In this document: piece after piece, positions 42,046-61,585 of the stretch
Numbering within the stretch: the stretch's first letter is position 1
Layout: every line of letters begins with the position of its first letter
NCBI GenBank assembly: GCA_963796455.1
Contig: CAWCLO010000003.1
Coordinates: 288,001 to 352,000, forward strand
Origin: Candidatus Sulfomarinibacteraceae bacterium
GTDB lineage: Bacteria > Acidobacteriota > Thermoanaerobaculia > Thermoanaerobaculales > Sulfomarinibacteraceae
Direction of reading: 5' to 3'
DNA length: 64,000 bases
Position numbers and translations under genes: made by a program
The notes under the pieces: generated by a model
Told to the model about the DNA's origin: nothing
The model's input: the letters and a program-made list of their open reading frames with translations, nothing else
The model's database searches: none

Positions 42046-42190
42046 TGCATCACTCTTGTCCAAGACAGGTTCTCGGCTAGCGATCAGGGGCGGCGACAGC
42101 GATCAGCGTCAGGGACAGGGAACAGCAATCAGTGTTCAGCGTCAGCGAACAGGAGTCAGCGTCACGTTAGACTGGCATGGGGCCCTGAAA

Positions 42191-42544
42191 TCAAGACTTC
42201 GGGTTGAGCAATCTCCAAGTCATTGCACGCACCTGATCAAAGGCCTTCATCGCGTCACTGGCTCTGTTCGGGCTGATCGCCCCGGCGTGAGCGAGAAGCT
42301 GCAAGTGGCTGTCGACCTCTTTCGCCGAGGCGTAGGCGATTCTCCAGGGGTTCGACCGGTCTCTACCGACTCGGCCGTGCCCTTCTGCCAGATTCGCAGG
42401 GACCGAACTTGCCGAACGGATCACCTGATCGGCTATCGACTTCAGAGGAGCTGGAACCCTCATCACGAGCTTGATCGCGATTCCTGCGGCTTCGAGTGCT
42501 TTCGAGTGGGCAACGAGGTTGGTGTTCGTGGCGGCTTTGGACAT
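42191..42544 (-). CDS. Four helix bundle protein (TIGR02436/23S rRNA IVP-like), copy A
   Basis: DQVIRSASSVPANLAEGHGR, IAYASAKEVDSHL; GGAGGT SD before ATG 42544. Confidence 0.9.
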   Translation of the reverse strand: MSKAATNTNLVAHSKALEAAGIAIKLVMRVPAPLKSIADQVIRSASSVPANLAEGHGRVGRDRSNPWRIAYASAKEVDSHLQLLAHAGAISPNRASDAMKAFDQVRAMTWRLLNPKS

Positions 42545-42682
42545 GGTCACCTCCGGGTCGTTCATGCCCCTACCCACAAGCCGGTGTGGCGGCCGATGTC
42601 AAGGATGCCCTGCACCCTGCCTGTCCTTGACATCGGCCGCCCACCGGCTACCCCTTCCTTTGAACGACCCGGAGGTGGCCAT
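42543..42682 (-). promoter_or_regulatory. Conserved nested leader hairpin sequestering SD and ATG (copy A)
   Basis: Outer IR 42543-42564/42661-42682; inner GGCCGATGTCAAGGA/TCCTTGACATCGGCC. Confidence 0.7.
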
Positions 42683-42936
42683 TTCGCCACATGAACTCAA
42701 GACTGCTGCCGCTGCCCGCCGTCGCTGACCACTGACCGCTGTCCCTGTTCGCTGTTGCCTGTCGCTGCCAACTGTCGCTGCCGCTGTAATTCGGACGCGG
42801 ACGCGGACACGGGCAGCCGCGAACCGGATATGCCAACAACCAACCCGTAAACCACGTGTTGTCAGGTGGGTAACATCACGTGACAATCTGTTTTGGACAG
42901 CAGTGATCCTGCATCCTGCATCCAGCATCCAGCATC

Positions 42937-42965
42937 AAAAAACGCGGACCGAAGCCCGCGTTTTT
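42937..42965. terminator. Bidirectional-type intrinsic terminator
   Basis: AAAAAACGCGG...CCGCGTTTTT. Confidence 0.7.
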
Positions 42966-42989
42966 CGAGGATTGAGGTCGTTCGATAAA

Positions 42990-43184
42990 CTAAAAAACGC
43001 CGGCCTCGGAGGTCGGCGATGTTTCGTAGGGCGGCTCCGCCTCGGTGGTAAGACTCACGATGGCCAGACCAAATGCGAGGACCAGGGCCGCGGCAACGAT
43101 CGGAATCAGGAACTGGGTCCAACCGGACCCGCTGTCCGTCCCACTTCCCAAACCGCCGGTAGCTTCCGCTTCGATCTCGGTCAT
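42990..43184 (-). CDS. Small single-pass membrane protein (64 aa)
   Basis: AGGAGG upstream, one hydrophobic helix, followed by a terminator. Confidence 0.55.
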   Translation of the reverse strand: MTEIEAEATGGLGSGTDSGSGWTQFLIPIVAAALVLAFGLAIVSLTTEAEPPYETSPTSEAGVF

Positions 43185-43274
43185 TTCAGAGCCCCTTCCT
43201 CCTAAATATATGACGCCGCAGCCCCCTGAAAAGTTGCAGGCGGGCCGAAATTCGGCCCACCTGCGGCGAAAAAC

Positions 43275-43742
43275 CTATTTCGAAGCCATCTTGTACTCGG
43301 GGTGATTGGATTTCATGTGCTTGGCGATCCACTCGGCCTGCATATCCTTGGGGACATTCGAAAGGGTGGCATCGATCTTCATTTTGCCGCCCTGCCGCAG
43401 AACCACGTACTGGACTTCAGATCCCGGTTCGAGCTTTGAATAGACCTTTTTGAGCTCCGCCTTGTTGTCCTTCGAGTACTTGACGCCGTCCATGGCGAGC
43501 ATGACGTCGCCCTTTTCAAAACCGGCTTTCTGGGCCGGGCTTTTGGCGACGACCTTGGAAACCACCCAACGCCCTTTCTCGTCGGTGTCGTATTCGATCC
43601 CGAGCCAGGCCTTCTCTGCGTACTTGGTCTTCATATACTTGGCGCAGTCTTCGGCGTTGCCATCACACTTCTTCTTGTCTCCGGCAACCGCCGGCACGGC
43701 GAAGATCGACACCACCAACAGAATCGCGAGCAGCTTCTTCAT
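43275..43742 (-). CDS. Secreted PDZ domain protein
   Basis: Signal peptide MKKLLAILLVVSIFAVPAVA after GGAGG; WLGIEY, SPAQKAGFEKGDVMLAMDG. Confidence 0.88.
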   Translation of the reverse strand: MKKLLAILLVVSIFAVPAVAGDKKKCDGNAEDCAKYMKTKYAEKAWLGIEYDTDEKGRWVVSKVVAKSPAQKAGFEKGDVMLAMDGVKYSKDNKAELKKVYSKLEPGSEVQYVVLRQGGKMKIDATLSNVPKDMQAEWIAKHMKSNHPEYKMASK

Positions 43743-44019
43743 TCCCTGACCTCCCGGATTTGTGGATCGGCTACCGGCGGCTGCAAACAGCGGCGCGGCA
43801 TCCGATCCGGGTTGATGAGATCCGCAATCGTCGGTTCGATCGACGAACCGCGTCGTGGATGGGGTGGGTATCTGTTCGATCATGGCTACCAAGATGCTCC
43901 TGACAGATGTGAATGTCCTCACCTTTCCGTCAGAAGCTGTGAAAGGTGTTACCGAGTTGCAAAACCCCGCCACGAAAGCCCGTCCGTGCGCTATATTGCA
44001 GGCTGAGAGGAGTTCACGA

Positions 44020-45702
44020 GTGTCCTTCTTCGAGAATCACAACGGACCCGGCAACGGAGTTTCAAACTCCGAACTCAAGGCGGTCGAGCACAACGTGCTC
44101 GGCGGGCGCCGTGTGCTCTGGGCCGGAATTTTGGCGGTGCTGCTTCCCCTGACCATCCTGCTCGGGCTGCAATACCTGTGGCTCACCGATCTCGAACGCA
44201 ATTCGGCCATCGCCCGCAAGGCGACGCTCAACAACTTCCTCGAGGCCATCACCAAGGACATCCACTACTACTACTGGAAGATTTCCGAGCGCGCCCTCAA
44301 CCTGCCGCCCGAGATCTTTGTTGAAAAAAAGATCGACTACGCGGCATCGTATTTCAAGAAAAAGGAGATCAAGGGCGCCAAGCGCTTCTTCGTCGTGAGC
44401 TACACGACCCGGGACGAGATCCTCTTTTACAACCCGAAGAAACAAAAAATGGAAGTGCCGGACCACTCCGATGAAACGCTCGCGGTGTGGGCGGCGGCGG
44501 CGCCATGGCGATATATGCGAAAAAAGAGCGCCAAGCTCGAAACCACCACTTTGAGCGCCGACTTTCACGATCCCAACAACAGGATCATTCTCCTTCCGAT
44601 CACCGATGAGGACTCCAAGCTCGTGGGGTTGGCAGGATTCATCGTCGATCAGGAGTATTTCAAAAAGGTCGTGCTCCCCGAGGCCATCGAAAAATCTCTG
44701 CCCAAGTTCGAAGACGGCGAAAAGGTCAAGCTGCAGGTAATCGTTCGCGACAACCAGAGCCAGCAGGTCCTGCCCAGGGGCATCCCGACCAACCCGAAGA
44801 AAAACCTGACCAAACGTTCCTTTGCTTTTGTCTTCACCGATTGGACCATCAGCCTCCAGGGTGACTTTGCCTCGCCTGAAAAGTGGGCAAAAGCCAACTT
44901 CGCCTACAACATGACGCTCTCTGCAATTCTCGCTGCGGTGCTCCTCGGCGGCATCGCACTCACCGTCCGGACCGCGCTCCGCGAAATGAAGCTCTCAGCG
45001 ATGAAGAACGAGTTTGTTTCGAACGTGTCGCACGAGCTCCGGACTCCCTTGTCGTCCATCCGGGTCTTTGGCGAGTTCATGCGCCGCGGCCGGGTCGAGG
45101 ACCAGGCCAAGGTCCGGGAGTACGGTTCTTACATCGAAACCGAAAGCCGTCGCCTGACCCAGTTGATCAACAATATTCTCGATTTCTCGCGCATCGAATC
45201 AGGTCGCAAGGTCTACACCTTCGAAGCAACCGATATCGAGGAGATTCTGGCCGGCACGCTCGCGACCTATACCATCCGCCTTCGGGACAAGGGCTTCGAG
45301 GTCGAATACACCGGTCCCGACGAGCCGCTGCCCGAGATCTCGGTCGACGGGAACGCCATCGACCGCGCGGTCGCCAATCTACTCGACAACGCTGTGAAAT
45401 ACTCCAACGGCGACCGCTGGATCGGTGTCGAGCTCGCTTCAAGCGGCGACGAGGTGCTGATTTCGGTCGCCGACCATGGAATCGGTATTCCTCGAGACGA
45501 GACCGAGAGAATCTTCGAACGCTTCCACCGCGTCAGCACCGGTCTCGTCCACGACGTCAAGGGGTCGGGGCTCGGTCTTTCGCTGGTCCGGCACATCGCC
45601 GAATCCCACGGCGGATCGGTGACCGTCGACAGCGTTGTGGGCGAGGGAAGCACGTTTACCATCCACCTGCCGATTGAAGGCGCGACTGGAGAGGGCGCAT
45701 GA
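44020..45702 (+). CDS. Sensor histidine kinase
   Basis: Two TMs; [14 protein letters not shown]-box; [25 protein letters not shown] start after GAGGAG. Confidence 0.94.
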
Positions 45703-46382
45703 GCAAGGTCCTGGTTGTCGAAGACGACGAGGCGATGGCAGTCGCCCTCCGCGACGGCTTCACCTATGAAGGTCACGATGTGACCCTGGCGCGTGATGGC
45801 GAGGAGGGGCTGCGGCTCGCGCGTGAGGACGGGCCGGAGATCATGATCCTCGATGTCATGCTGCCGAAAATGACCGGTCTCGAAGTCTGCAAGCTCCTCC
45901 GCGGCGAAGGTTCGAACCTACCGATCATCATGCTCACCGCGCGCGGCCAGGAAATCGACAAGGTCCTGGGGCTCAAACTCGGGGCGGACGATTATGTGAC
46001 CAAGCCTTTCAGCTTCATGGAACTGATGGCCCGGGTCGAAGCCGTGTTGCGGCGCAGCAAACCCGGCGGTGGATGCCAATCCGCAATCCACGAGTTCGGC
46101 GACCTCACCGTCAACCTCGAGTGTCACGAGGCCAGCAAGGCCGGTGAAGCCATCGCTCTCACACCCCGCGAGTTCCGGCTCCTCGGGTTCTTCCTCGCTC
46201 ACCCCGGCGAGGTCGTGTCCCGCGAAGAGTTGTTGGATGCGGTGTGGGGATACGACACCATCCCATTCACCCGCACAGTCGACACTCACATCGCCAAGCT
46301 GCGCAAAAAAATCGAGGATGACCCGTCGGATCCGCAGCACATCATCACCGTGCATCGCCTGGGATATAAGTTCGTAGGCTGA
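45699..46382 (+). CDS. OmpR-family response regulator
   Basis: [39 protein letters not shown]. Confidence 0.95.
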
Positions 46383-46539
46383 CCGGAAACCGCGTCCGCG
46401 TCCGCGTCCGTGCCCGAATTGCAGCGGCAGCGACAGTGTCCAGCGTCAGCGACAGGCAACAGCGTCAGGGATCAGCGGTCGGCGATCAAGGGCTGCGTTC
46501 AGTTTCCAGCGGCAGCGGTCAGGAGTACAGGCGGCGCAG

Positions 46540-46677
46540 TGGTCACCTCCGGGTCGTTCGACAGAAGGGGTAGCCGGTGGGCGGCCGATGTCAAGGACAG
46601 GCAGGGTGCAGGGCATCCTTGACATCGGCCACCACACCGGCTTTTGGGAATGGGCATGAACGACCCGGAGGTGACCA
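46540..46677 (+). promoter_or_regulatory. Conserved nested leader hairpin (copy B)
   Basis: Perfect 20-bp IR 46540-46559/46658-46677; 15-bp stem 46583-46597/46616-46630. Confidence 0.7.
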
Positions 46678-47030
46678 TGTCCTCAGCCGCCACGAACACC
46701 GACCTCGTTGCCCACTCCAAAGCCCTCGAAGCAGCAGGCATCGCGATCAAGCTCGTGATGAGGGTTCCAGCTCCACTGAAGTCCATAGCCGATCAGGTAA
46801 TCCGGTCGGCAAGTTCGGTCCCTGCGAATCTGGCAGAAGGGCACGGCCGAGTTGGTAGAGACCGGTTGAACCACTGGAGAATCGCCTACGCCTCGGCGAA
46901 AGAGGTCGACAGCCACTTGAAGCTCCTCGTCCACGCTGGGGCGGTCAACCGGAATGGAGCCGGTGAAGCGATGAAGGCCTTCGATCAGGTCCGTGCCATG
47001 ACCTGGCGGCTCTTGAATCCGAAGAATTGA
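46677..47030 (+). CDS. Four helix bundle protein, copy B
   Basis: 13 differences in 117 aa vs copy A; same motifs; GGAGGT SD. Confidence 0.9.
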   Translation: MSSAATNTDLVAHSKALEAAGIAIKLVMRVPAPLKSIADQVIRSASSVPANLAEGHGRVGRDRLNHWRIAYASAKEVDSHLKLLVHAGAVNRNGAGEAMKAFDQVRAMTWRLLNPKN

Positions 47031-47261
47031 GCGCTGTTCGCTGTCGCAGACTTCTGTTAGCTGACCCTGTCCGCTGTAGCTGTCACTGTCGCTGCCGCTG
47101 CCGCTGGACGCTGTCTGAGACCCTGTCTTGACCTCGAGCGACCGAAGACGGAGAAACCGCAGATCACGCAGATGAACGCAGAGAGTAGGGCAGGAACGTC
47201 GAGCGCCGTCTATTGAAGCTGGAGGGTCTCGAGCGTTTCGCGGAGCACGGGGCTCCGGCCA

Positions 47262-47316
47262 TTGTGGTGCGGCCGTCCCGGCCGCACGGTGTGCAGGCGA
47301 GACGCCTGCACCACAA
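47262..47316. repeat. REP-like palindrome doublet
   Basis: TTGTGGTGCGGCCGTCCCGGCCGCAC-GGT-GTGCAGGCGAGACGCCTGCACCACAA; same as 7139, 32082, 41819. Confidence 0.82.
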
Positions 47317-47516
47317 ACGCGATGTCCTCCCGAGCGGAGCCGCACAAGGGGCCGCGCAGTTGCACCCACTGGACGGGACGTCTTGAGTCTGAATACTTTG
47401 CTTGAGTGGGTGGGGTTCGATTCCCGGCTTCCGGCTTCGTCTCCGACTACGCCGTGACAGGTCGCATCCGGCTACGCCGCGGCATTTTTTCATTCGGCTA
47501 TTGCCGAACAAAAAAA

Positions 47517-47594
47517 TGGTGACCCCAACGGGATTTGAACCCGTGTTGCCGGCGTGAAAGGCCGGTGTCCTAGACCTAGCTAGACGATGGGGTC
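47517..47594 (-). tRNA. tRNA-Glu (UUC)
   Basis: Cloverleaf: acceptor GACCCCA/TGGGGTC, anticodon stem CCGGC-CTTTCAC-GCCGG, T-arm ACGGG-TTCAAAT-CCCGT, encoded CCA. Confidence 0.97.
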
Positions 47595-47777
47595 ACTTTC
47601 GCAACCATGTGAACGGCTGTTCTGGCCGTCCGGGCGGGTATCCTACCGCAAAACTGCGCGTGGGAAAAGCCCATGTCCAAATTCGCTCTCGCAATCGGGA
47701 TCGTCATCCGGCCCCGTTGACTGTCCGAGGTCATTCGATAGCGATACCGATTGCGAGAGCGATAGCGATGCGGCTGT

Positions 47778-48536
47778 TCAGTACCACTCCAAAACCCGCA
47801 CCTCGATCTCGGAATCGACCGACACAAGGCGTTTGAACTCATCGAGATCGCTCATCCCGCCTTTGCCGCGATAGTGGTAGGGGAAGACAACCTTTGGTTT
47901 GAAATCGAGCACCGCGTCGGCGGCGGGGCCGACATCCATGGTGTAAGGGAGGTTCATGCAGACAAAGGCGGCATCGATGTCTTCGAGGGCCCGCATCTCC
48001 GGGATGTCCTCGGTGTCACCGGCAATGTAGATCCGCGCGCCATCAATCGTCAGCACATACCCGTTGCCCCGGCCTTTGGGGTGGAATCCCTGTTTTTCGG
48101 GATCGAGGTTGTACATAGGAACGGCTTCAATGATCACACCATGCCAGTCGAGAGACTCGCCATTGGCCATAGACGCTAGAACTTCACGATCTCCGGCCGG
48201 AAAACGCTCCACTACCGCCGGCGGCGCGATGATCTTTGTTCCAGCAGCGGTCAACGCGGCTACGGTCTCGAGCGACAGGTGATCACCGTGGATATCGGTG
48301 ATCAGGATCAGATCGACCGTTTGGATCGGCGCAAAGGCCTCCGCTCCACCCACCGGATCGACTGCCACCCGTTGCCCAGCCCACTCGAGGACAAAGGTCG
48401 CGTGCTCGATCGGGCGGATCGTTACCACTCCTCCGTCGGTCGCGATCTGGTTGTCTGCGGCCACCGCGTCCAGCACCTGCAGCGACAGAACCGTACACAT
48501 CAAAAGGCCAACGATCGACGGAGTTTTCTTTGTCAC
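47778..48536 (-). CDS. MBL-fold metallo-hydrolase
   Basis: ITDIHGDHL, YIAGDTED, MNLPYTM, FPYHY. Confidence 0.9.
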   Translation of the reverse strand: MTKKTPSIVGLLMCTVLSLQVLDAVAADNQIATDGGVVTIRPIEHATFVLEWAGQRVAVDPVGGAEAFAPIQTVDLILITDIHGDHLSLETVAALTAAGTKIIAPPAVVERFPAGDREVLASMANGESLDWHGVIIEAVPMYNLDPEKQGFHPKGRGNGYVLTIDGARIYIAGDTEDIPEMRALEDIDAAFVCMNLPYTMDVGPAADAVLDFKPKVVFPYHYRGKGGMSDLDEFKRLVSVDSEIEVRVLEWY

Positions 48537-48674
48537 TTTGCTCTCTCCTTTGAGAATGCGAGGATACCGTAAACGCCCTTCGAAGGAGTTCGCTTTTGCG
48601 GTCGTTTCCTGAGATCATGGACTCGCTGGTTGCGATATCCTCGCGAGTGGTCCAAAACATTGAGAGGTAGGGTC

Positions 48675-49112
48675 ATGGACGATCGAAATCTCCTCGGCGA
48701 TGCGCCGATCGGTAAACTCAGCGGCCACAAGATCCTCGTCGTCGACGACGATGAGGAAATCAGGGTCTTTTTGACGACCCTCCTCTCGGACGAGGGCGCG
48801 GCGGTCTTCGAAGCCGCCGACGGCGATGAGGCGATCGAGAAGGCCGCAAGCACCAAGCCCGATCTGATCACCCTCGATCTTTCGATGCCCGGTAAAAACG
48901 GGATCGAAGCCTTTACCGAATTACGACAGAATTCCGATACCGAGGAGATCGCGATCTGTGTCATCACCGGCCATCCCGAGTTCCGCTCCGTCATCTACGA
49001 TCGACCGGTCGCCGCCCCTGAAGGCTTCATCAACAAGCCCTGTGATCCCGACCACGTGGTGGATACCCTTCGCCGCATCCTCCGAATGAAAAAGCGCAAA
49101 CAGAGGGGCTGA
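48675..49112 (+). CDS. Single-domain response regulator
   Basis: ILVVDDD, ITLDLSMPGKNG, FINKP. Confidence 0.9.
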   Translation: MDDRNLLGDAPIGKLSGHKILVVDDDEEIRVFLTTLLSDEGAAVFEAADGDEAIEKAASTKPDLITLDLSMPGKNGIEAFTELRQNSDTEEIAICVITGHPEFRSVIYDRPVAAPEGFINKPCDPDHVVDTLRRILRMKKRKQRG

Positions 49113-49121
49113 GTCTCCGCG

Positions 49122-50675
49122 TCATTGCCACCGGTAGCCGACGATGAGACCGTTGAACTCGAGATCAAAATCGTTGTGGAGGTCGCTCGAATCAAAGATC
49201 CACTCCACCCGGCGATGGACCAGGGCGAGATCCCAACTGGTGGCAAATCGCCAGCGAAAACCGAGCGCCCAATCAAAATAACGTTTCGATGAGATTGGCG
49301 ATCCGTCGGCCTCGGCATAAAACACCATGCTCGAGGACGGCCTCACACCGAAGTGGACATGAAGCACCGGGGCCACCCGCAGGCCTTCGGCCCGAGAGCT
49401 TTTTCCGGGCGTACCGGCAGAGTCCTCCTGGACCGTGATTTCAAGGCGTTCGGCAAGCAGATCGACCCCGGCGCCCGCCTTGAGAGATAGTGCTCGGGTC
49501 TCGAGCAATCGATAACGCCACCGGGTTCTCCAGTCATAACCCACGAACTGGGTATCAAGGACCTCGCTGGGCTCAAAGGTCGCACCGGCGAAGTCGGTTT
49601 CGACCTGGAATTGTTCCTCCTCACGGACCTCGAAGGGAGCCAGACGGGTTGATATTTCGTGGCGGTCGCCGATTCGCCGATCGATTTCGAGGTTTGCAGT
49701 CACGGCCGGGTTATTGCGCTCGCGGAAGCGAAAATCGATTTCGTCTCCAGCTTCGTCGGGCGCCACGACCTGGTTTTGGAGCACCGTCGATCGGCCGACC
49801 TCCCAGACGTACCGCCACCGCCACGGATCACTGGATTCCTGTGGCCGGGGCTCCGTAGTGGATGAACTGCCGGTTATCTTCAGCGACAGACCCAGTCCAC
49901 GATCCACCAGCATCGGGTTCAGTGTCACCCGATCTTCGATCGGCGAGACAAAGGTCCAGCCGCTGATCAGGGCGATGCTCATCCCCGAGATCACATCGTC
50001 GAGATAGTGGCGCTCGGCACTGACCCTGCTGAGCCCGGTGAAGCTTGCCAGAACATAGGCCGGCACGCCCCACCGCGGACCATAACGCCGATGGAGGAAG
50101 GAGGCACCCGAAAAGGCCGCCTGGGTGTGGGCCGAGGGGAAAGAGTCAAAGTCGGCGGCCGATGGCGTCCGTTTTTCAACCCCGTACTTGAGGCCATAGG
50201 TTGCGGCGGTGCCAACACCGAACTGGATGCCGTACTGCATAGCCCCAGGACCGTCGCCGGCGATCCAGGTCGCGCCCAGGGCCGAGCCCGGCAACAGGTA
50301 TTGCAGGAGATCGCCGAGTTTTTCCTCGTCGTCCGCCGATCCCGTATTGAGGATCACGACGCCGCCGGCCGCAAAGACCCCTGTCAGAATCCAGCTCGTC
50401 GTCGTCATCCCGCCCACCACCCGCCGCCGCCGTTTTTCCAATCCGGTAGCGGGAGGTTCTGCAGCCGGAGCAGGGGCTTGTTGAAGATCCAACATTACCG
50501 GGGCGGCAGTCGGCCGAATCGGAATCAGGACGGTTGATTCGAGCCCGAGAGAAAAGCCGGGCTCAACCGGTTCTCCATCATCCCCATCGGCTCCGCCGGC
50601 CATCGCGACGAGCGTGAGCGCCGCGACAATCCCCACGCGAAACCACCATCGGGCCGAAAGAGGCGATCGATCCAC
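49122..50675 (-). CDS. PAP2 phosphatase domain fused to putative outer-membrane beta-barrel
   Basis: SFPSAH and SRVSAERHYLDD PAP2 motifs; C-terminal amphipathic strands ending GLIVGYRWQ. Confidence 0.72.
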   Translation of the reverse strand: MDRSPLSARWWFRVGIVAALTLVAMAGGADGDDGEPVEPGFSLGLESTVLIPIRPTAAPVMLDLQQAPAPAAEPPATGLEKRRRRVVGGMTTTSWILTGVFAAGGVVILNTGSADDEEKLGDLLQYLLPGSALGATWIAGDGPGAMQYGIQFGVGTAATYGLKYGVEKRTPSAADFDSFPSAHTQAAFSGASFLHRRYGPRWGVPAYVLASFTGLSRVSAERHYLDDVISGMSIALISGWTFVSPIEDRVTLNPMLVDRGLGLSLKITGSSSTTEPRPQESSDPWRWRYVWEVGRSTVLQNQVVAPDEAGDEIDFRFRERNNPAVTANLEIDRRIGDRHEISTRLAPFEVREEEQFQVETDFAGATFEPSEVLDTQFVGYDWRTRWRYRLLETRALSLKAGAGVDLLAERLEITVQEDSAGTPGKSSRAEGLRVAPVLHVHFGVRPSSSMVFYAEADGSPISSKRYFDWALGFRWRFATSWDLALVHRRVEWIFDSSDLHNDFDLEFNGLIVGYRWQ

Positions 50676-50711
50676 TCATACCAGCCTACCGCCGCCCAGG
50701 TGGACTGCAAA

Positions 50712-51622: not shown

Positions 51623-53017
51623 TCACTGCAGGTATCCAAGCGCCCGGAGTCGTTCCCGCGCAGCATCCGAAACCCGAAGAGCTTCTTCCGCATCAACTCC
51701 CTGCTCGAAGCGGAGACGCCAACGACCGAGCGCCTCTTCGAGATCGGCCACCGCTGCATCACCCTGGCGGAAGAGGTCGTTCTGTTCCAGGGGGTCGTTC
51801 TCGAGGTCGTAGAGTTGCCGCCCATCCGTGGAGAGCTCGGATATGAGCTTGAATCGACCATCATCAACACTTCGCAGATCGTCCTGGAGGCTGAAGACAA
51901 AATCGTGCACCGCCTGATTCTGCTCGATGAGGGACCGGAGCGATCTGCCTTCAAGGCCGATATCTGAATAGTCGATCCCCAGGTAATCCAGAATCGTCGG
52001 TACGATATCGACGTTTTCGACCATCGCCGCGACCGGCCCATCGTTCACCACCCCGGGGATGCTCATCACCAGCGGGGTCTTCGTCGTCGCATCAAAAAGA
52101 GAATGACAGTGTTTGACGTGCCCATGCTCCTGGAGGAAATCCTCACCATGATCCGATGCGAGGACGATGATGGTGTTCTCCATGAGGTGACGGCGGCGAA
52201 GAGCACCAAGCAGCGCGCCGAACTCGGAGTCAAAAAATGAGATCTCCTCGTCGTAGAGATCCACCAGGTGATCGAGATCTGCATCGTTCAAAGGTAGCGG
52301 CGGCCCGCTGCGGTAGACCATCAGCTCCATCGGGTTCGGATTTCCCGCCTGGATAAAGCCAGGGCCCTGATTCTCCCCCGCCCACCGGCGTTTGAAATGC
52401 CGTGGCGGCCGGTAGGGATCGTGCGGATCGAAGTAATGCAGATAGGCCAGAAAAGGCTGTCGAACCCGCGACAGGTACTCGAGGGCCTGTCGGTTGACAC
52501 AGTCCGCCGATCCCCGCATGCACTGCTCATCGAAGAAATCGAAGCCGCGCCCGAAGTCGCCGTGGGGCTCGCTCTCGGTCGCCGGTCGGCGCATGATCGG
52601 ACTGGCCGTCACCGCAAAGGTCGCCATCCCGTTGGCGGCGGCGATTTCCGCAAGCGACAAGGTGTGTTCGGGAATGCCCATCTCCCCGTTCGGCTGATTC
52701 AAAAAGCGATAGGGATAGGTGGAGGTCAAGAGCGAGTTGACCGAAGGAAAGGTGCACGAAGCCTGGCTCCGAACCCTCGAAAACAGCAGATTGTCGTCCG
52801 CAAAACGATCAAGATTGGGGCTGGTGTCCCTCGAATAGCCATAGCAGCCGAGATGATCGGCGCGCAGGGTATCGACGACCACTACAATGACGTTGCGAAT
52901 CTCCGGCTCAGCCGACGGCTCCGACCTGCAGCCGACGAGGATCCCCATAGCGGCCGTCGCGACGATCAACCATTCGAACCCGTATTTTTTCAAGCCAATC
53001 ACATCCACTCCCGGCAT
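51623..53017 (-). CDS. Sulfatase-like hydrolase/transferase (alkaline phosphatase superfamily)
   Basis: NVIVVVVDTLRADHLGCYGY, HYFDPHDPY, YDEEI..D, SDHGE, LYDLENDPLEQ, LRALGYL; start uncertain. Confidence 0.88.
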   Translation of the reverse strand: MPGVDVIGLKKYGFEWLIVATAAMGILVGCRSEPSAEPEIRNVIVVVVDTLRADHLGCYGYSRDTSPNLDRFADDNLLFSRVRSQASCTFPSVNSLLTSTYPYRFLNQPNGEMGIPEHTLSLAEIAAANGMATFAVTASPIMRRPATESEPHGDFGRGFDFFDEQCMRGSADCVNRQALEYLSRVRQPFLAYLHYFDPHDPYRPPRHFKRRWAGENQGPGFIQAGNPNPMELMVYRSGPPLPLNDADLDHLVDLYDEEISFFDSEFGALLGALRRRHLMENTIIVLASDHGEDFLQEHGHVKHCHSLFDATTKTPLVMSIPGVVNDGPVAAMVENVDIVPTILDYLGIDYSDIGLEGRSLRSLIEQNQAVHDFVFSLQDDLRSVDDGRFKLISELSTDGRQLYDLENDPLEQNDLFRQGDAAVADLEEALGRWRLRFEQGVDAEEALRVSDAARERLRALGYLQ

Positions 53018-53126
53018 CGAGAAACTGCATCCACTTTCGATTGTAACGGTGAGCTCTCGGCGATCACGCCAACGGGAGCAGACGCGCCTTGACTCGGAGC
53101 GACCGGATTGAGGAGAATGCCGGGTC

Positions 53127-54272
53127 ATGATCAATACCAATTCTCATTTCGCTCGCCGAGGTGTTCTTCTACCTCTCGTCGTTGTCGTCGGACTGACCGT
53201 TGGATGTGGGAAACCGCCTGCTACGCCAGCCCCTACAGCCCCCGAAGTCGTCGTCTCGACGGCGACCCAGCGCGATGTCACCATCGTCCACGAGTTCGTC
53301 GGGACCACCCAGGCCCGCGAATCGGTGGAGATCCGCGCCCGGGTCCAGGGCTTTCTCGAAGAAATCAACTTCGAACCCAGCTCCTACGTGCGCCGGGGCC
53401 AAAAGCTCTTTCTCATCGAGCCCGGGCCCTACAAGGCACGGCTCGAGCAGGCCGAGGCGAACATGAAATCAGCCGAGGCCGGTCTGCAACGAACCGAGTC
53501 CGACCTCGACCGGCTCGAACTGGCGGTCCAGACCAACGCGGTGAGCGAGCAGGAGGTCACCCGTGCCCGGGCCGAGCGCGATCAGGCATCAGCCGGGCTG
53601 CTCCAGACGCAGGCAGCGCTGACCAACGCCCAGATCGACCTCAGTTATACGACGATCGAATCGCCGCTGAACGGTCTCGTGAGCCGCAACTTCGTCGACC
53701 TCGGCAACCTGGTCGGTGGCAGTGAGGCGACCCTTCTCGCAACAGTGCGACGGATTGACCCGATCTTTGCGTATTTCGAGGTCTCCGAGAGGTTTATGGC
53801 AAAGACTCTCGAACAACGGGGTGGTCACGGTGATCCGGGTAAGGGTGAAGATCTCCCTGCCACCCTGCTCCTCAAGGAGACCGGGTTGGCTATCGAAGGC
53901 AAGGTCGATGCGGTGGACAACACCGTCGATGCGGCCACCGGCACGATTCAACTGCGCGCGATTTTTCCCAACCCCGACAACAAGATCTTTCCGGGTTTCT
54001 TCTGTCACGTGCAACTGCCGGGTGAAGAACTCCCGAACGCCGTGCTGGTCCAGGAGACCGCGCTCGGCACCGACCTGGGCGGCCGCTACGTCATGGTGGT
54101 TGGCGATGGCAATGTGGTCGAGAGGCGGTATATCGAGCCCGGCCCCCTCCAGGAAGACAACACCCGCGTGATCCTCTCTGGTCTCGAGCCCGGCGAGCGC
54201 TATATCTCGGAAGGTCTGCAGCGTGCACGACCGGGGATGCCTGTGACACCAAAAGAAGCAGCAGGGCAGTAG
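53127..54272 (+). CDS. RND efflux periplasmic adaptor (MFP)
   Basis: Lipobox-like TVGC; EIRARVQG, LSYTTIESP..G, VDAATGT. Confidence 0.93.
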   Translation: MINTNSHFARRGVLLPLVVVVGLTVGCGKPPATPAPTAPEVVVSTATQRDVTIVHEFVGTTQARESVEIRARVQGFLEEINFEPSSYVRRGQKLFLIEPGPYKARLEQAEANMKSAEAGLQRTESDLDRLELAVQTNAVSEQEVTRARAERDQASAGLLQTQAALTNAQIDLSYTTIESPLNGLVSRNFVDLGNLVGGSEATLLATVRRIDPIFAYFEVSERFMAKTLEQRGGHGDPGKGEDLPATLLLKETGLAIEGKVDAVDNTVDAATGTIQLRAIFPNPDNKIFPGFFCHVQLPGEELPNAVLVQETALGTDLGGRYVMVVGDGNVVERRYIEPGPLQEDNTRVILSGLEPGERYISEGLQRARPGMPVTPKEAAGQ

Positions 54273-54275
54273 GCC

Positions 54276-57200
54276 ATGTTCAGCCGCTTTTTTATCTACC
54301 GTCCGATCTTTGCATCGGTCATTGCGATCGTCATCGTGCTTGTGGGCGGGCTTTCAATCCCGCTCCTGCCGATCGAAAGCATGCCCGCCATCACGCCGCC
54401 GTCGGTGCAGGTTTCGACCTCCTACCCCGGTGCCGGAGCCGGCGTGGTGGCGGAGAGCGTGACCGCCCCGATGGAAGAGAAGATCAATGGCGTCGAGAAC
54501 ATGCTCTACATGTCGTCGAAATCGGCCTCCGACGGTTCCTGCAACATCACCATCACCTTCGAGGTCGGCACGGATGTGGACATGGCCACTGTCCTGGTCC
54601 AGAACCGGGTCAACGAGGCCACGCCCGTGCTCCCCGAGGAAGTTAAACGCCAGGGCGTCAAGGTCGAAAAACAGTCGACCAACATCACCCTCATGATCAA
54701 CATGTTGTCGCCCGACGGCACCTTTGACGACCTCTATATCTCCAACTACACCACCACCCGAATCAAGGACGTGCTGGCGCGAATCAACGGCGTTTCCAAG
54801 GTCGAGGTCTTCGGCGCCAAGGACTTCGGAATGCGGGTGTGGATCAACCCCGACCGGCTGCGCGCGCGCGGCCTCACGACCATGGATCTCACCAACGCCC
54901 TGCGTGAACAAAACGTTCAGGTGGCCGCGGGACAGATCGGCGGCCAGCCGGCGCCAAAAGATCAGCCCTTCGAGTACTCGATCTCCACCCTCGGCCGGCT
55001 GCAGACCGTGGAACAGTTCGAAAATATCATCGTCAAACGCGGTGAGCAGGGGCAGCTCGTGCGGGTTCGCGACGTGGCCCGCGTCGAACTCGGCGCCCAG
55101 AGCTACAAGTGGTTCGCAAAATTGGACGGAGCGCCGTCGATCGCAGTTGCGGTCTACCCTGCACCCGGAGCCAACGCCCTCAACGTGGCCGAAGGCATCA
55201 AGGCCGAAATGGACCGACTCCGGAAAGACTTCCCCGAGGGCCTCGAGGCCCGCATCCTCTACGACACCACCGAGTACATTCTGCAATCGCTCAAAGAGGT
55301 CGTGACCACTCTGATCATCGCCATCCTGCTGGTGATCTTCACGGTCTACATCTTCCTCCAGGACTTCCGCACCACACTGGTCCCGGCGGTCACCATACCG
55401 GTTTCCCTGCTCGGCACCTTTGCGGTCATGCTCGCCCTCGGTCTGTCCATCAACGGGCTCACCATGTTCGGGTTGATTCTGGTGATCGGCATCGTCGTCG
55501 ACGACGCCATCGTGGTGGTGGAAAACACCATGCGCATCATCGACACCGAGGGCCTCGATGCGAAGGCAGCCACCGCGAAATCGATGCTCGAGATCACCGG
55601 TCCGGTGGTCGCGACGACCCTGGTGCTGTTGGCGGTCTTTGTCCCCACCATCGTCATGCCAGGTATCACCGGCCGGCTTTACCGGCCGTTCGCGATTACC
55701 ATCTCGGTGGCGACTCTCTTTTCATCGCTCAACGCGCTGACTCTCAGCCCGGCGCTGTGTGGCATGCTCCTGCGGCCCTCGGTGGAACGCAAAAAGGGGT
55801 TCTTCGGGCTCTTCAACCGGATATTGGACACGGGCACCACCCGCTACGGATCAATCGTCAAATTGCTGCTCCGCCGCTCGGTCTTCACAGCAATCATCGT
55901 CGGTGGGCTCCTGGTGGCCACGTACTTCGGAATGATCGCCATGCCCGCCGGTTTCGTCCCCTCCGAGGACGAAGGCTACTTCATGGTTGCGGCACAGCTT
56001 CCCGACGCGACCTCCCTCGGGCGAACCGAAGAAGTCCTCGACGAGATCTCAGCCATCCTCGATGAGACCGAAGGCATCCGCGGCGTCATCGCGGTCGGTG
56101 GCTATTCATTGCTCGATACGGTCGTGTCGCCAAACGCGGGCGCCTTCTGGGTAGTGCTCGATCACTGGGACGAACGATCCACTCCGGAGACCCAGATCCA
56201 GGCCATGGTCGATAGCCTGAACCGCCGTTTCTCTCAGGTTCAGGGAGCGGTGGTCTTCGCCACCCGGCCGCCACCGATCCAAGGCCTGGGTGCCACCGGC
56301 GGATTCCAGATGGAGCTTCAGGATGTCGGCGGATCCGGCCTCGAGCTCTTGCAGCAGGTAGCCAATGACCTCGTGGAGCAGGGTCGTGAGAGCCCGGTTC
56401 TCACGAGCATGAACACGACTTTCCGGGCCGGCGTGCCGCAGCTCTTCCTCGAGGTCGACCGCGAAAAGGCCAAGCGTCTCGACGTGCCCCTTTCGGTCAT
56501 CTTCGACACGCTCCAGGCCAACCTCGGATCGGCCTATGTCAACGACTTCAATATTTTCGGCCGGGTCTGGAAGGTCATGATTCAGGCCGACGAGCCCTAC
56601 CGGATCGAACGAGCCGACATCACCAAACTCCAGGTTCGCTCCAACTCGGGCAGAATGGTCCCGTTGGCGACCCTGGTCGACGTTCAGGACACCGTCGGCC
56701 CAACAGTTCAAGCCCGCTACAACCTCTACTCCTCGGCATCGATCACCGGAGATGCCGCCGCCGGCTTCAGCTCCGGTCAGTCGATCGCGACGATGGAGGA
56801 GATCGCCCGCAATTCGATGCCGCCCTCGATGAGCTTCGAGTGGACCGGGGTGACCTACCAGCAACTCGCCGCCGGTGGCGCTGCCGGGTTCATCTTTGCG
56901 CTGGCCATCGTTTTTGTTTATCTCTTCCTGGCCGCCCAGTACGAAAGTTGGACCCTGCCCTTCGGCATCATCTTTTCGGTTCCCATCGCGATCCTGGGTG
57001 CGTCCATCCTGACCCTGGCTCGAGGTCTCGACAACAACGTCTACACCCAGATCGGATTCGTTCTGCTGATCGGTCTCTCGGCCAAGAACGCGATCCTCAT
57101 CGTCGAGTTTGCCAACCAACTTCGGCAGAGTGGGAAAACCGCCTTCGAAGCGGCTCGGGAAGCTTCAAGGCTCCGATTCCGGCCGATTCTCATGACCGCA

Positions 57201-57428
57201 TTGAGCTTCATCCTCGGCGTTCTGCCATTGCTCTTCGCCACAGGTGCCGGGGCTGCTAGCCGCGTCGCTCTCGGGACCGCGGTTTTTGGCGGGATGGCCT
57301 TTGCGACAGTCTTCGGCATCTTTGTCATTCCATGGCTCTACTTCGTGGTTCAGAGCCTGAGTGAAAAAATCGCCGGCACCAAGACACCCACAGATCCGGA
57401 ACCGGCAGCCGCCGCCACCGAGAGCTGA
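54276..57428 (+). CDS. RND efflux permease (AcrB/HAE1 family)
   Basis: FFIYRPIFA, IGIVVDDAIVVVEN, AKNAILIVEFA, RFRPILMT. Confidence 0.96.
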   Translation: MFSRFFIYRPIFASVIAIVIVLVGGLSIPLLPIESMPAITPPSVQVSTSYPGAGAGVVAESVTAPMEEKINGVENMLYMSSKSASDGSCNITITFEVGTDVDMATVLVQNRVNEATPVLPEEVKRQGVKVEKQSTNITLMINMLSPDGTFDDLYISNYTTTRIKDVLARINGVSKVEVFGAKDFGMRVWINPDRLRARGLTTMDLTNALREQNVQVAAGQIGGQPAPKDQPFEYSISTLGRLQTVEQFENIIVKRGEQGQLVRVRDVARVELGAQSYKWFAKLDGAPSIAVAVYPAPGANALNVAEGIKAEMDRLRKDFPEGLEARILYDTTEYILQSLKEVVTTLIIAILLVIFTVYIFLQDFRTTLVPAVTIPVSLLGTFAVMLALGLSINGLTMFGLILVIGIVVDDAIVVVENTMRIIDTEGLDAKAATAKSMLEITGPVVATTLVLLAVFVPTIVMPGITGRLYRPFAITISVATLFSSLNALTLSPALCGMLLRPSVERKKGFFGLFNRILDTGTTRYGSIVKLLLRRSVFTAIIVGGLLVATYFGMIAMPAGFVPSEDEGYFMVAAQLPDATSLGRTEEVLDEISAILDETEGIRGVIAVGGYSLLDTVVSPNAGAFWVVLDHWDERSTPETQIQAMVDSLNRRFSQVQGAVVFATRPPPIQGLGATGGFQMELQDVGGSGLELLQQVANDLVEQGRESPVLTSMNTTFRAGVPQLFLEVDREKAKRLDVPLSVIFDTLQANLGSAYVNDFNIFGRVWKVMIQADEPYRIERADITKLQVRSNSGRMVPLATLVDVQDTVGPTVQARYNLYSSASITGDAAAGFSSGQSIATMEEIARNSMPPSMSFEWTGVTYQQLAAGGAAGFIFALAIVFVYLFLAAQYESWTLPFGIIFSVPIAILGASILTLARGLDNNVYTQIGFVLLIGLSAKNAILIVEFANQLRQSGKTAFEAAREASRLRFRPILMTALSFILGVLPLLFATGAGAASRVALGTAVFGGMAFATVFGIFVIPWLYFVVQSLSEKIAGTKTPTDPEPAAAATES

Positions 57429-57438
57429 GGAACGAGCT

Positions 57439-58950
57439 ATGAAACGAACCCGCTTCATCCCGTTGATCGCCGTGGCCTTCGTCGTCGCATTGAGCGGCTG
57501 CACCGTCGGACCGGATTACGTACAGCCGGAAATCCCCTCGGTTCCGGACACCTGGAACAGCGCCGCCACCGAAGGTCTTGCCGACGGTCAGTCATCCTTG
57601 CAGGCCTGGTGGACGGTCTTTGACGACGAGGTCCTGACATCTCTGATCGAACGCGCACGACTGTCGAATCTGACCCTTCGCGAAGCTGTCTGGCGCGTCG
57701 AGGAAGCTCGCGCGTTGCGCGGTGTCGTCGCCGGGGTGCAAAAACCCCAGGTCGGTCTGAGCGGCGATGCCAGCCGCAACGACCCCTCCAACAATGGTGC
57801 ATTGGGCGCCGTTGCTCCGGAGGGAGGTTTTGAACCCTCAAATCAGTTCGGCCTCGGGGTCGGAGCGACCTGGGAAATTGATCTCTGGGGCCGCATCCGC
57901 CGCCAGGTCGAAGCTGCTGATGCCCAGGTCGACGCCTCGGTGGAGGACTATCGCGATGTCCTGGTGACCCTCTTTGCCGAAGTTGCCTTCAACTATGTCA
58001 ACGTGAGGGAACAGCAGGAAAGGCTCCGTCTGGCGAAAGAAAATGTCAGCGGCCAGGAAGACACCCTCGAACTCACCAACGATCGCTATAGCGCCGGCCT
58101 GGTATCGGCACTCGATGTCGCCCAAGCCGAAAGCAATCTGGCCAACACGAGGTCGTTGATCCCCACTCTCGAGAAGGGCATCGCCCTGGCCTTGAACCGG
58201 CTTGCGGTGCTCCTGGCCACCAGCCCCGGATCGCTGGATGACGAGCTGGCTGACAAGGCCGCCATCCCCACCGAACCGGAAGCCGTAACTACCGGGCTGC
58301 CGGCCGATCTGCTGCGCCAACGTCCCGACATCCGTGCGGCCGAGCGCCTGTTGGCTGCCCAGACCGCCCGCATCGGGGTCGCCACAGCCGATCTCTATCC
58401 CTCTTTTTCCCTCTCCGGTTTCCTGGGGCTGCAATCCACCTCGGCCGGGGACCTCTTCAGTTCGGATAGCGTCAACTGGTCCATCGGTCTGCCCGTTCGC
58501 TGGAAGCTTTTTGCCGGTGGCGCCGTCCGATCACAGATTGCGGCCGAGGAAGCGCGAACCGAACAGCTTCTGGCAAACTATGAACGGGCAGTGCTCCTCG
58601 CCCTCGAAGAGGTGGAGGATGCCATGGTCTCGTATGAAAAAGAGGTGGTTCGAAGGGCCCATCTATTTGATTCGGTGGATGCGACCCAACGCTCCCTCGA
58701 TCTGGTCTTGACCCAATACAGGGCGGGTCTGACGAATTTCCAGAACGTCCTCGACACCCAGCGCTCTCTGCTGCTTCGCCAGGACGATATGGCAGCCAGC
58801 GAGGGAATCGTCATCAAAAACCTCGTCGACCTCTACCGTGCCCTCGGTGGCGGCTGGGATCCGGAGACAGCGCAATCGCCGGCATTACCCGCTCCGTCCA
58901 TTCCGCCGGGCGAGTCGGCATCGTCGGAATCAGAGGTCGCGACGCGATAG
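57439..58950 (+). CDS. Efflux outer-membrane lipoprotein (NodT/OprM family)
   Basis: LSGCTVGPDY lipobox, WEIDLWGR, LLRQRPDIRAAE, LYRALGGGW. Confidence 0.94.
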   Translation: MKRTRFIPLIAVAFVVALSGCTVGPDYVQPEIPSVPDTWNSAATEGLADGQSSLQAWWTVFDDEVLTSLIERARLSNLTLREAVWRVEEARALRGVVAGVQKPQVGLSGDASRNDPSNNGALGAVAPEGGFEPSNQFGLGVGATWEIDLWGRIRRQVEAADAQVDASVEDYRDVLVTLFAEVAFNYVNVREQQERLRLAKENVSGQEDTLELTNDRYSAGLVSALDVAQAESNLANTRSLIPTLEKGIALALNRLAVLLATSPGSLDDELADKAAIPTEPEAVTTGLPADLLRQRPDIRAAERLLAAQTARIGVATADLYPSFSLSGFLGLQSTSAGDLFSSDSVNWSIGLPVRWKLFAGGAVRSQIAAEEARTEQLLANYERAVLLALEEVEDAMVSYEKEVVRRAHLFDSVDATQRSLDLVLTQYRAGLTNFQNVLDTQRSLLLRQDDMAASEGIVIKNLVDLYRALGGGWDPETAQSPALPAPSIPPGESASSESEVATR

Positions 58951-59013
58951 CAGGAGCAACACACAGCCATCCGACCCACCACGGGAGCCGGAGCGCACGA
59001 ACCAGGAGGTGAT

Positions 59014-60942
59014 ATGGCGGTCGGCAACCTGGGAGTATTCGTCGGACCTGATCTCGATCTGTCGGACCAATTGCGGTGGGCCGTTCGCCTGGCCGAGGCC
59101 CGCAATCTGGACATCGTGGTGTTCCAACGGATCGAAGGCAGTGAGCGGCAAACAGTCAACGTGCCCCTGGACGGATCCGCCGAAGGCGAGGCCGCAGTGG
59201 CGGCAGGCGAGGTCTTCCAGGCCATCGAATCCATGCCCATTCTTCGTGCGGGACCTCGACCTGAAACGGCGGAAGATGAAGCCTTAGATGACGATGACTC
59301 GGTCATCCACGTCCAGTTGAAACTGATCCGCTGCGCCAACCTCCCATCTCTCAGGGAGCTGCTCCTGGCCGAGGTTCGCAAATCCAAACTCAAGCTCTTC
59401 ACCGTGGTGCGCAAGGACCTCGGGGGCACCGGCAGCGAGATCACCAGGGAGCGTCGTCAGTTCCTCCGACACGTTCCGTGCGAGGTGGTCCATTGCAGCG
59501 GCTTCAACGAGGACAACGATCTATCTCGGATCCTGGTCACCGTCGCTTCGGGGCCCCATGCAGCGTCGGCATTGAAAATCGGTCGGGATCTCGCTTCTTC
59601 GTCCGGCGCCACCTTGACCGCCCTCCGCGTCAACCCTTCAATCGGCCCCGATGCCGAACAGGTCGGCGCCCGGCGCCTCGACATTCTGATCAAAAAGTCC
59701 CTTGGAAAAGACGAGGGCGAAGTTCTTCGGCGAGTGGTGGTGGACGATCAGATCCCCCGCGGTGTTCGCCGGGTTTGGGATGAGGGGAACTTCGACCTCG
59801 TGATCACCGGTGCGTCGCGGGTCGGTATGCTGGGAAGCCGGGTCGAGGGCAGCATCGGCGCCCGGCTTGCCAGGGATGAATCCGGGCCCACGGTCGCCGT
59901 CGTCAGTTCCGCTTCGCCGGTAAGAAATCGATTTCTCGCCGTGCTGGAAGGGGCGATCGAGCGGCTGGTGCCGCAGATCGATCGCGAGGACAGGGTGGTA
60001 CTGGTCGAACGGGTGCAGTCGAGTTCCCATTCGAATTTCGACTTTTTTGCCCTGATGGTTCTTTCCACCTGCATCGCCGCCATCGGTCTGATTCAGAACT
60101 CGGCCGCCGTCGTCATCGGCGCCATGCTGGTAGCTCCCCTCATGACGCCGCTGCTCGGTCTGGGTCTCGCCCTGGTCCAGGGCAATCCCGTCCTGGCTCG
60201 AATCTCCGTACGCTCGGTCGGTTTCGGTGTCGTGGTCGCGCTCCTGGTTGGATTGACGGTCGGTTTCCTGACCCCCGGCTTCGAAGAACCGACCCGTGAA
60301 ATGCTCGGACGCGGCGGACCCAGCGTGCTCGATCTTTTTGTCGCCTTCGCCTCCGGGCTGGCCGCCGCCTATGCCTCCTCGAGGCCCGGTCTCCTCGCCG
60401 CACTTCCTGGGGTCGCCATCGCGGCCGCCCTGGTTCCGCCGATCGCCACCTCCGGTCTGGCCCTGTCTCTCGGTAACCTGGATCTGGCCTTCAATGCCCT
60501 TCTGCTCTTTGTCATCAACATGGTCACAATCGTCCTGGCGACCGTGGTCAGCCTCTGGTTTGTCGGTCTGCGCAATATCAAGAAAACCTCGCGCTGGGCG
60601 GTTCGAGTGGGCGGCGCGGTCCTCCTTGCAGTGTTGGCGCTTGGCGTCTATCTGAGTATCAAACCCACTCCGATCCCCACCGCGGCAGGTCTCCCGACCG
60701 ATTTCATGGAAGACATCCAGCGCCGGCTCGGTGACGACTATCGCCTCGAGGGAATCGGGGTCGCGTATGACGAGCTCGGCGTGCAACTCAATGTTCGGGT
60801 CGTCGGTAAAACGTTTGCGCCTGAGAACGTGGCGAACGAAGTCCGTGCGGCAGCGCGCGAACATTTCGACAAACCGGTGAGGGTCCGAATGCTCACCCAG
60901 GTGGATGCCGAAGCGGAGGCCTTTGGATCCCAGCTCGACTGA
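59014..60942 (+). CDS. Universal-stress-like domains fused to DUF389 membrane domain
   Basis: ILVTVASGPHA, DLVITGAS; NSAAVVIGAMLVAPLMTP, GVAIAAALVPP. Confidence 0.85.
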   Translation: MAVGNLGVFVGPDLDLSDQLRWAVRLAEARNLDIVVFQRIEGSERQTVNVPLDGSAEGEAAVAAGEVFQAIESMPILRAGPRPETAEDEALDDDDSVIHVQLKLIRCANLPSLRELLLAEVRKSKLKLFTVVRKDLGGTGSEITRERRQFLRHVPCEVVHCSGFNEDNDLSRILVTVASGPHAASALKIGRDLASSSGATLTALRVNPSIGPDAEQVGARRLDILIKKSLGKDEGEVLRRVVVDDQIPRGVRRVWDEGNFDLVITGASRVGMLGSRVEGSIGARLARDESGPTVAVVSSASPVRNRFLAVLEGAIERLVPQIDREDRVVLVERVQSSSHSNFDFFALMVLSTCIAAIGLIQNSAAVVIGAMLVAPLMTPLLGLGLALVQGNPVLARISVRSVGFGVVVALLVGLTVGFLTPGFEEPTREMLGRGGPSVLDLFVAFASGLAAAYASSRPGLLAALPGVAIAAALVPPIATSGLALSLGNLDLAFNALLLFVINMVTIVLATVVSLWFVGLRNIKKTSRWAVRVGGAVLLAVLALGVYLSIKPTPIPTAAGLPTDFMEDIQRRLGDDYRLEGIGVAYDELGVQLNVRVVGKTFAPENVANEVRAAAREHFDKPVRVRMLTQVDAEAEAFGSQLD

Positions 60943-60951
60943 GAACAGCAC

Positions 60952-61305
60952 TCACTTCGTCGGGTGCAACAGTCGCCAGGTCATGGCACGGACCTGATCG
61001 AAAACCTTCATCGCTTCACTGGCTCCGTTTCGGCTGATCGCCCCGGCGTGGGCGAGGAGCTGCAAGTGGCTGTCGACCTCTTTCGCCGAAGCGTATGCGA
61101 TTCTCCAGTGGTTCAACCGGTCTCTACCGAATCGGCCATGCCCTTCCGCCAGGTTCGCCGGGACTGAACTGGCCGACCGGATCGCCTGATCGGCTATCGA
61201 CTTCAGAGGAGCTGGAACCCTCATCACAAGCTTGATCGCGATCCCTGCTGCTTCGAGGGCTTTGGAGTGGGCAACGAGGTTGGTGTTCGTGGCGGCGTTG
61301 GACAT
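60952..61305 (-). CDS. Four helix bundle protein, copy C
   Basis: Near-identical to copies A and B; GGAGGT SD before ATG 61305. Confidence 0.9.
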   Translation of the reverse strand: MSNAATNTNLVAHSKALEAAGIAIKLVMRVPAPLKSIADQAIRSASSVPANLAEGHGRFGRDRLNHWRIAYASAKEVDSHLQLLAHAGAISRNGASEAMKVFDQVRAMTWRLLHPTK

Positions 61306-61585
61306 GGTCACCTCCGGGTCGTTCATGTCCATTCCCACAAGCCGGTGTGGCGGCCGATGTCAAGGATGCCCTGCACCCTGCCTGTCCTTGACATCGGCCG
61401 CCCACCGGCTACTCCTTCCGTTGAACGACCCGGAGGTGGCCACTTCGCCGACTGGACTCCTGATCGCTGCCGCCGCCGCTGTCCTCTGTCGCTGTTCCCG
61501 GTCGCTGGTCACTGTCGCCGCCACTGAACCCTGTCGCTGGACACTGTCGCTGCCGCTGCATTTCGGGCACGGACACGGACTCGGG
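60952..61585 (-). mobile_element. Putative four-helix-bundle repeat element, copy C (no downstream arm)
   Basis: Same left end, CAGCGA arm and hairpin (61305-61442); stop lies 9 nt from the convergent DUF389 stop. Confidence 0.5.

Follow-up and report, generated by a model that had tools for sequence, protein, structure and literature searches.

The 64,000-nt window analysed here (Candidatus Sulfomarinibacteraceae bacterium, assembly GCA_963796455.1, contig CAWCLO010000003.1) contains three copies, designated A, B and C, of an intergenic element built around a gene for a small four-helix-bundle protein. The source genome assembly (G000) consists of 10 contigs and is 90.5% complete. The three 117-codon open reading frames (ORFs) of the initial annotation were confirmed at 42191-42544 (minus strand), 46677-47030 (plus strand) and 60952-61305 (minus strand), with 89–90% identity at both the DNA and protein levels. 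The series described upstream of them is common to all three copies, namely, hexamers, CGAAWTRCAGCGGCAGCGACAG, a CAG-phased arm, a 19-bp inverted repeat, a hairpin, and the second half of the repeat with a Shine–Dalgarno motif and ATG. The reverse arm and the GAGA...TGTCTTG end are present only in A and B, as claimed. The motif previously taken for the left end of the element does exist but is internal. The true left terminus, found by aligning the flanks, lies about 110 bp farther out; of the three copies, A alone has kept it (42888-42905). The GAGA motif runs into A's right terminal repeat (42051-42068). The terminal inverted repeats of copy A are 18 bp long, and its target duplication measures 9 bp. 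The features of the three copies are as follows (L016 is an intact element of the insertion sequence (IS) family IS4, described below):

42051..42905, minus strand: copy A, complete 855-bp cassette, from terminal repeat to terminal repeat
42888..42905, minus strand: upstream terminal inverted repeat of A, 18/18 identical to the right end of L016
42051..42068, plus strand: downstream terminal inverted repeat of A, 15/18 identical to the left end of L016
42906..42914, minus strand: upstream copy of the 9-bp target duplication of A, within a heptamer array
42042..42050, minus strand: downstream copy of the target duplication of A, 9/9 match
42809..42887, minus strand: subterminal block of A, common to most copies and present also in the related genomes G006, G053 and G057
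42681..42808, minus strand: hexamer run and left arm of A, degenerate CAG-phased repeats of 6 or 7 nt
42545..42680, minus strand: leader of A, a 19-bp inverted repeat around an inner hairpin, its 3' arm carrying a GGAGG ribosome-binding motif just before the ATG
42191..42544, minus strand: four-helix-bundle gene of A (PF05635/TIGR02436)
42069..42190, minus strand: right arm of A, the reverse complement of the left arm, the two being predicted to pair around the gene
46388..47140 (outer boundaries approximate), plus strand: copy B, with leader (46541-46676), gene (46677-47030) and right arm, its right end decayed
60952..61600 (upstream boundary approximate), minus strand: copy C, with left-block remnant, arm, leader (61306-61441) and gene (60952-61305)

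Copy B has neither the left terminal repeat nor the subterminal block. Copy C has no terminal repeats and has lost almost the entire right arm, which is cut about 10 bp from the stop codon of a convergent DUF389 gene.

A search of the whole genome gave 100 gene matches, and counting of copies, proposed by the initial annotation, yielded 59 full-length ones, 58 of them without an internal stop. The census further comprised 33 loci with a partial gene, 69 that lack the gene and have another hairpin, and 22 others, with 63 single weak hits left aside. Two related 18-mer end motifs, read inwards, have 255 matches in the genome (on contig C1, 86 versus 1 in a shuffle). Both ends are kept in 30 of the full-length copies, one end in 22 and none in seven, and of 81 cores, six stand in inverted orientation to their ends. 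Insertions are enriched between convergent genes (26/59 copies versus 351/2038 spacers). No clear co-orientation with the upstream gene, as would be expected from dependence on read-through, was observed (33 same versus 26 opposite, with a crude gene caller).

Target duplications, which were also to be looked for, were found at cassette ends and are 9 bp long. In 71 adjacent end pairs, the flanks form a direct repeat over 9 bp with an identity of 0.78, compared with 0.51 in mismatched pairs; 21 of these duplications are perfect and 38 are within one mismatch. For the 29 pairs with non-periodic flanks, identity was 0.70 at 9 bp versus 0.25 at 8 bp and 0.24 at 10 bp. The preferred target is a near-palindrome that fits the heptamer arrays of this genome, and 47 of 88 such arrays touch a cassette end.

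Orthologous sites without the element were found for A and B. Downstream of the orthologue of the gene preceding A, the gene, core and ends are absent at 15/15 congener loci with a flank (one flankless locus and seven fragments or paralogues were dropped). Downstream of the regulator preceding B, all three are absent at 16/16 congener loci, 13 of which continue directly to tRNA-Glu (two loci had a flank of <100 bp; two paralogues were dropped). The neighbour gene of C has no match in 24 congeners. The empty orthologous sites, the IS4-type ends and the 9-bp duplications together identify the element as a mobile insertion cassette. The high copy number, the empty sites and species-specific expansions also bear out its earlier description as dispersed and spreading.

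The copies could in principle be old local duplications or an assembly artefact. They come from a single assembly, and among contigs built from public sequencing runs none spans a whole copy with both flanks or shows a clean empty site. However, the copies are spread over 8 of 10 contigs, each in different flanks with duplications of its own. The changes among them are mostly synonymous, and independent genomes hold their own expansions. In four public runs, sequencing depth is far higher over the element than over its flanks. The empty sites of A and B contradict this explanation directly, and it is extremely improbable.

The cassette encloses a passenger gene and no transposase. Among 30 DDE loci from the family, one (L016, genome G017) is an intact 1411-bp element encoding an IS4-family DUF4372-DDE transposase of 402 aa (NF033592, 251 bits with a cut-off of 115), and it carries both cassette-type ends (18/18 and 15/18). 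Relatives of L016 are autonomous; 22 of 41 retrieved were checked and perfect 9-bp duplications were seen in seven, while several others have no flank. According to the available part of PMC2266710, IS4 subgroups with CA ends produce duplications of 8–10 bp. Mobilisation in trans, one of the two mechanisms initially suggested, is supported by the terminal repeats with 9-bp duplications and by the autonomous IS4 element with the same ends.

Other candidate movers were rejected. PF14706, which marks IS50-type transposases, was not found, and the ends of the sole PF01609 gene of G000 differ from those of the cassette. The initial annotation had also suggested a search for HUH/RAYT genes. Six Y1_Tnp loci occur in G000, none with the end motif within 3 mismatches, and 9-bp duplications are present at the cassettes, so that membership of the repetitive extragenic palindrome (REP)/RAYT systems was discarded. 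At two other sites of G000 (C4:114700-115252 and C5:1335-2018), the same IS4 ends surround a different cargo, a REP-like palindrome. Gene-less MITEs (miniature inverted-repeat transposable elements) of ~310–360 bp, with the same IS4 ends and unrelated interiors, occur in G086 (L047, L055) and in G008 and G084 (L056, L057, L062).

The most probable reading (roughly 85%) is that of a cassette that lacks a transposase, has ends of the IS4 family and 9-bp duplications, carries a four-helix-bundle gene as passenger, and was likely spread by a cognate IS4 transposase in trans. Trans mobilisation is inferred because the transposase was not found in G000 and is rare in congeners and in the order. A cognate DUF4372-DDE transposase (P0001-like) would act on the cassette ends, movement would proceed by cut-and-paste, and the transposase may since have been lost or may be unassembled. 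The inner core, made up of repeat arm, leader hairpin, gene and reverse arm, would be an older module akin to the rRNA intervening sequences that bear an ORF; it was presumably loaded onto IS4 ends once and rides ISL3 ends in the sister species.

Gene match counts across 30 relatives range from 0 to 53. In G006, a young burst of copies has its junctions at IS4 ends with 9-bp duplications. At 24 loci of G014, G008, G016, G005, G003 and G013, the same core occurs without an IS4 end. GG-type (ISL3-type) ends flank it on both sides in 14 of these, on one side in five and on neither in five; in 10 of the 14 doubly ended loci, an 8-bp duplication matches at 7/8 positions or more. Similar ends were detected on both sides of ISL3 elements in G017 and G083 and on one side of one in G008, a genome which also holds identical gene copies at separate sites. 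The IS4 end was counted 71 times in G000 and 39 times in G006, and the ISL3 end with its target 0 times in both; in G017, G014, G088 and G004 the ISL3 end with its target is present and the IS4 end is not, and G008 has both. Thus, the same passenger rides two unrelated IS families, IS4 and ISL3, within one genus. In a 66-row unrooted tree (G000 contributes 15 rows, including one duplicate, and all of these were given the IS4 label by family), IS4-ended copies form one side of a branch (100/97) and gene copies cluster largely by genome. The arrays beside ISL3-type ends (L126-L144, L171) look mostly 8-periodic, which equals the duplication length, and those beside IS4-type ends 7-periodic; periodic arrays may partly be footprints of repeated insertion and loss.

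The assignment of the protein to the four-helix-bundle family held: curated cut-offs of PF05635 and TIGR02436 were passed (54 bits versus 33.8 and 56 versus 24, respectively). No catalytic domain was found in Pfam or NCBIfam, sequence matches to the structures 2RLD and 2GSC are weak (E 0.01–0.02), and a lookup in the Atlas returned PF05635 clusters only. The protein is basic, with a median pI of 10.4. Among the copies, a comparison also proposed at the outset, pairwise pN/pS is 0.18. Shared alleles comprise 139 synonymous and 55 non-synonymous changes. Private changes are depleted, with 69 non-synonymous and 1 stop against ~205 and 12 expected from a simulation that allows for saturated synonymous alleles (frameshifted and deleted copies excluded). 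By raw counts, singletons (38 synonymous, 69 non-synonymous) are near neutral, as if selection acted only at copying; the saturation-aware simulation speaks against this. The gene is under purifying selection. In G006, changes unique to one copy are few (6 non-synonymous, 2 synonymous).

The copies also exchange variants. Linkage among them decays with distance (p = 0.0005) and reaches background within ~60 bp. In 28 young copies of G006, variants reassort and many private changes are alleles of distant copies, which fits short conversion tracts, as expected, and assembly, too, can mix up repeats that are nearly identical. Most frames are probably kept open in part by gene conversion among copies. 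In eight partial copies of G000 (C1:368265, 470291, 661794, 1000025 and 1137370; C10:438295; C3:14069 and 98137), the protein match starts at codon 57, and the three inspected share one deletion junction.

The leader is predicted to fold into a 19-bp stem around the inner hairpin that covers the GGAGG motif (z = -9.6). Compensatory changes were seen at 8 of 47 pairs, nearly all in the inner stem (8 sequences, three from the window). In the predicted fold of a whole copy, the arms pair around the gene (z = -9.2). In an Rfam scan, tRNA was the only passing family. Two leader types occur with one gene in G006. A second in-frame ATG lies seven codons upstream of the annotated start (46656-46676 and equivalents), preceded by a purine-rich unpaired loop; it may be the real start, and the second leader type of G006 lacks it. 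Inverted repeat arms, mostly of 7–9-base units, bracket 24 of 30 PF05635 genes in 30 genomes of the phylum, compared with 9/565 and 0/114 controls. Four distant PF05635 genes of G000 (C4:1278094, C1:983149, C9:2726 and C10:733004) each lie inside inverted arms with their own 6–8-base unit, and like units also form free arrays in other spacers.

The phylum-wide occurrence of the arms suggests that the core of arms, hairpin and gene could move on its own by means of the four-helix-bundle protein, the IS ends being a later, partly incidental wrapping. All four distant family genes of G000 are arm-wrapped with no IS end noticed by eye, five of the 24 relative loci show neither end type, and the gene remains under selection, all of which would agree with such autonomy. 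However, the junctions in G000 and G006 sit at IS4 ends with 9-bp duplications, and the protein has no catalytic domain in the databases scanned. Moreover, gene-less cassettes have duplications as fresh as those of gene-bearing ones (14/26 versus 15/30) and a similar nearest-neighbour identity. Copies that have no gene moved just as well. IS4-type movement therefore does not depend on the protein in cis, and own movement of the core is unlikely. For the same reason, the mechanism dependent on the small protein that was initially envisaged is unnecessary, and we infer that the protein does not catalyse the jump.

As a further alternative, the element could be retro-mobile, with a reverse transcriptase (RT) and the Avd-like protein copying it through RNA. 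This would draw on the homology of the family to Avd (PMC10053308, available part), on the binding of Avd to a stem-loop of its own RNA (as given in the accessible portion of 10.1101/2023.10.23.563531) and on the structured, covarying leader. In contrast, the terminal repeats with 9-bp or 8-bp duplications are traits of DDE elements, and the search for a co-occurring RT suggested in the initial annotation gave no RVT_1 match in G000 at its 90.5% completeness. There is no adenine-biased mutation either, adenines being no more variable than other bases (44/83 A columns versus 74/113 C). Copying through RNA is therefore very unlikely.

Several observations weigh against the proposed spread of an IS4-ended cassette by a transposase in trans. 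No more than 30 of the 59 full-length copies retain both ends. Empty sites were not seen within the species itself, and congener spacers are too diverged to reveal the exact pre-insertion sequence. Around L016, the duplication is not intact (4/9). Searches for the cognate transposase found nothing in the 90.5% complete assembly of G000 or, despite the young burst, in the incomplete assembly of G006, and the enzyme was detected in only 1/24 congeners and 6/119 genomes of the order. RTs, which a retro-mobile unit would need, occur in three of the five congeners searched (G006, G014 and G008). Finally, a mobile cassette alone leaves the selection on the passenger in ~60 copies unaccounted for.

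As for the function of the passenger, binding of the protein to its own hairpin or arms, as earlier suggested, is putative and plausible. A self-RNA-binding role is favoured because of the analogy with Avd (PMC10053308 and 10.1101/2023.10.23.563531, both in part) and the basic charge. The protein may be a basic Avd-like oligomer that binds the folded RNA of the cassette, the leader stem restraining its translation; we would give this proposal somewhat less than an even chance.

One mobile insertion cassette (MIC) is MIC231, which belongs to the IS231 subgroup. It is named once in the accessible text of PMC2266710; MICs and IS-derived MITEs are defined in PMC3129680 (partial text). The element described here is in kind such a cassette, sharing with MICs and MITEs the IS ends without a transposase, the target duplication of the parent family, a passenger gene and gene-less derivatives. 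Unlike MICs, it has ~60 intact copies per genome, a self-folding passenger under purifying selection that resembles an intervening sequence (IVS), and two unrelated IS vehicles. The parent IS4 type is defined by a DUF4372 + DDE_Tnp_1 transposase (NF033592). Terminal sequences and the 9-bp duplication are like those of the CA-ended IS4 subgroups in the portion of PMC2266710 at hand, whereas the cassette has no transposase gene.

The core is also similar to the ORF-bearing 23S rRNA intervening sequences of Coxiella and Leptospira (S23p), in which, according to PMC4990558 (available part, here and below), a PF05635 gene lies in complementary arms with a predicted long stem; in Coxiella, tandem heptamers precede the ORF. 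Unlike these sequences, the cassettes are intergenic and multicopy, and no insert of this kind interrupts the one 23S gene of G000. The cassette gene is conserved, whereas the Coxiella ORF is reported as decaying (PMC4990558). The homologous fold family (PMC10053308, in part), the basic protein and the structured RNA beside the gene are shared with Avd of diversity-generating retroelements, which differ in having an RT, a template/variable repeat pair and adenine mutagenesis, none of which was seen here. In the searchable literature, outside which most subscription journals and supplements lie, no IS-ended or arm-wrapped cassettes of the PF05635 family are described. Compared with that literature, the IVS-like passenger, the dozens of selected copies and the two unrelated IS vehicles in one genus are new.

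Two further members of the family lie next to copies A and B in the window:

41660..42034 (approximate), minus strand: gene-less sister cassette adjoining A, with the same arms and 5' inverted repeat, different hairpin cargo, one good end and one decayed end
47248..47322, minus strand: remnant hairpin of the gene-less class, between B and tRNA-Glu

Additional gene-less or solo-end members are located at about 7100-7320, 31926-32200 and 5164. A short repeat of another kind (39579-39611 and 47148-47182) stands out in public runs by very high depth and numerous loose ends. The Usp + DUF389 gene (59014-60942), for which 24 congeners gave no match, has a ~60% identical homologue in G053 and G057, of another genus, where it adjoins an IS4-ended cassette remnant; transfer of this gene between genera is possible.

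A broader and more tentative proposal, a little less probable than RNA binding by the protein, is that arm-wrapped four-helix-bundle genes may constitute a widespread selfish module and a free-living counterpart of ORF-bearing rRNA intervening sequences. Its protein would act on the folded transcript to make insertions tolerable, and the module, having taken up the ends of two unrelated insertion sequences in sister species, would have multiplied into dozens of copies that are under selection and recombine. Hypotheses on how ORF-bearing rRNA intervening sequences arose and spread include transposition and an ORF-aided mobile element (PMC4990558). Their origin, spread and protein function are open questions that the cassette addresses. 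The surprising part is that the passenger is selected in ~60 copies although it is not needed for jumping. For this cassette the vehicle is definite and the type of transposase has a name, gene-less copies serve as natural controls and natural variants number in the hundreds, so that both mobility and protein function are directly testable.

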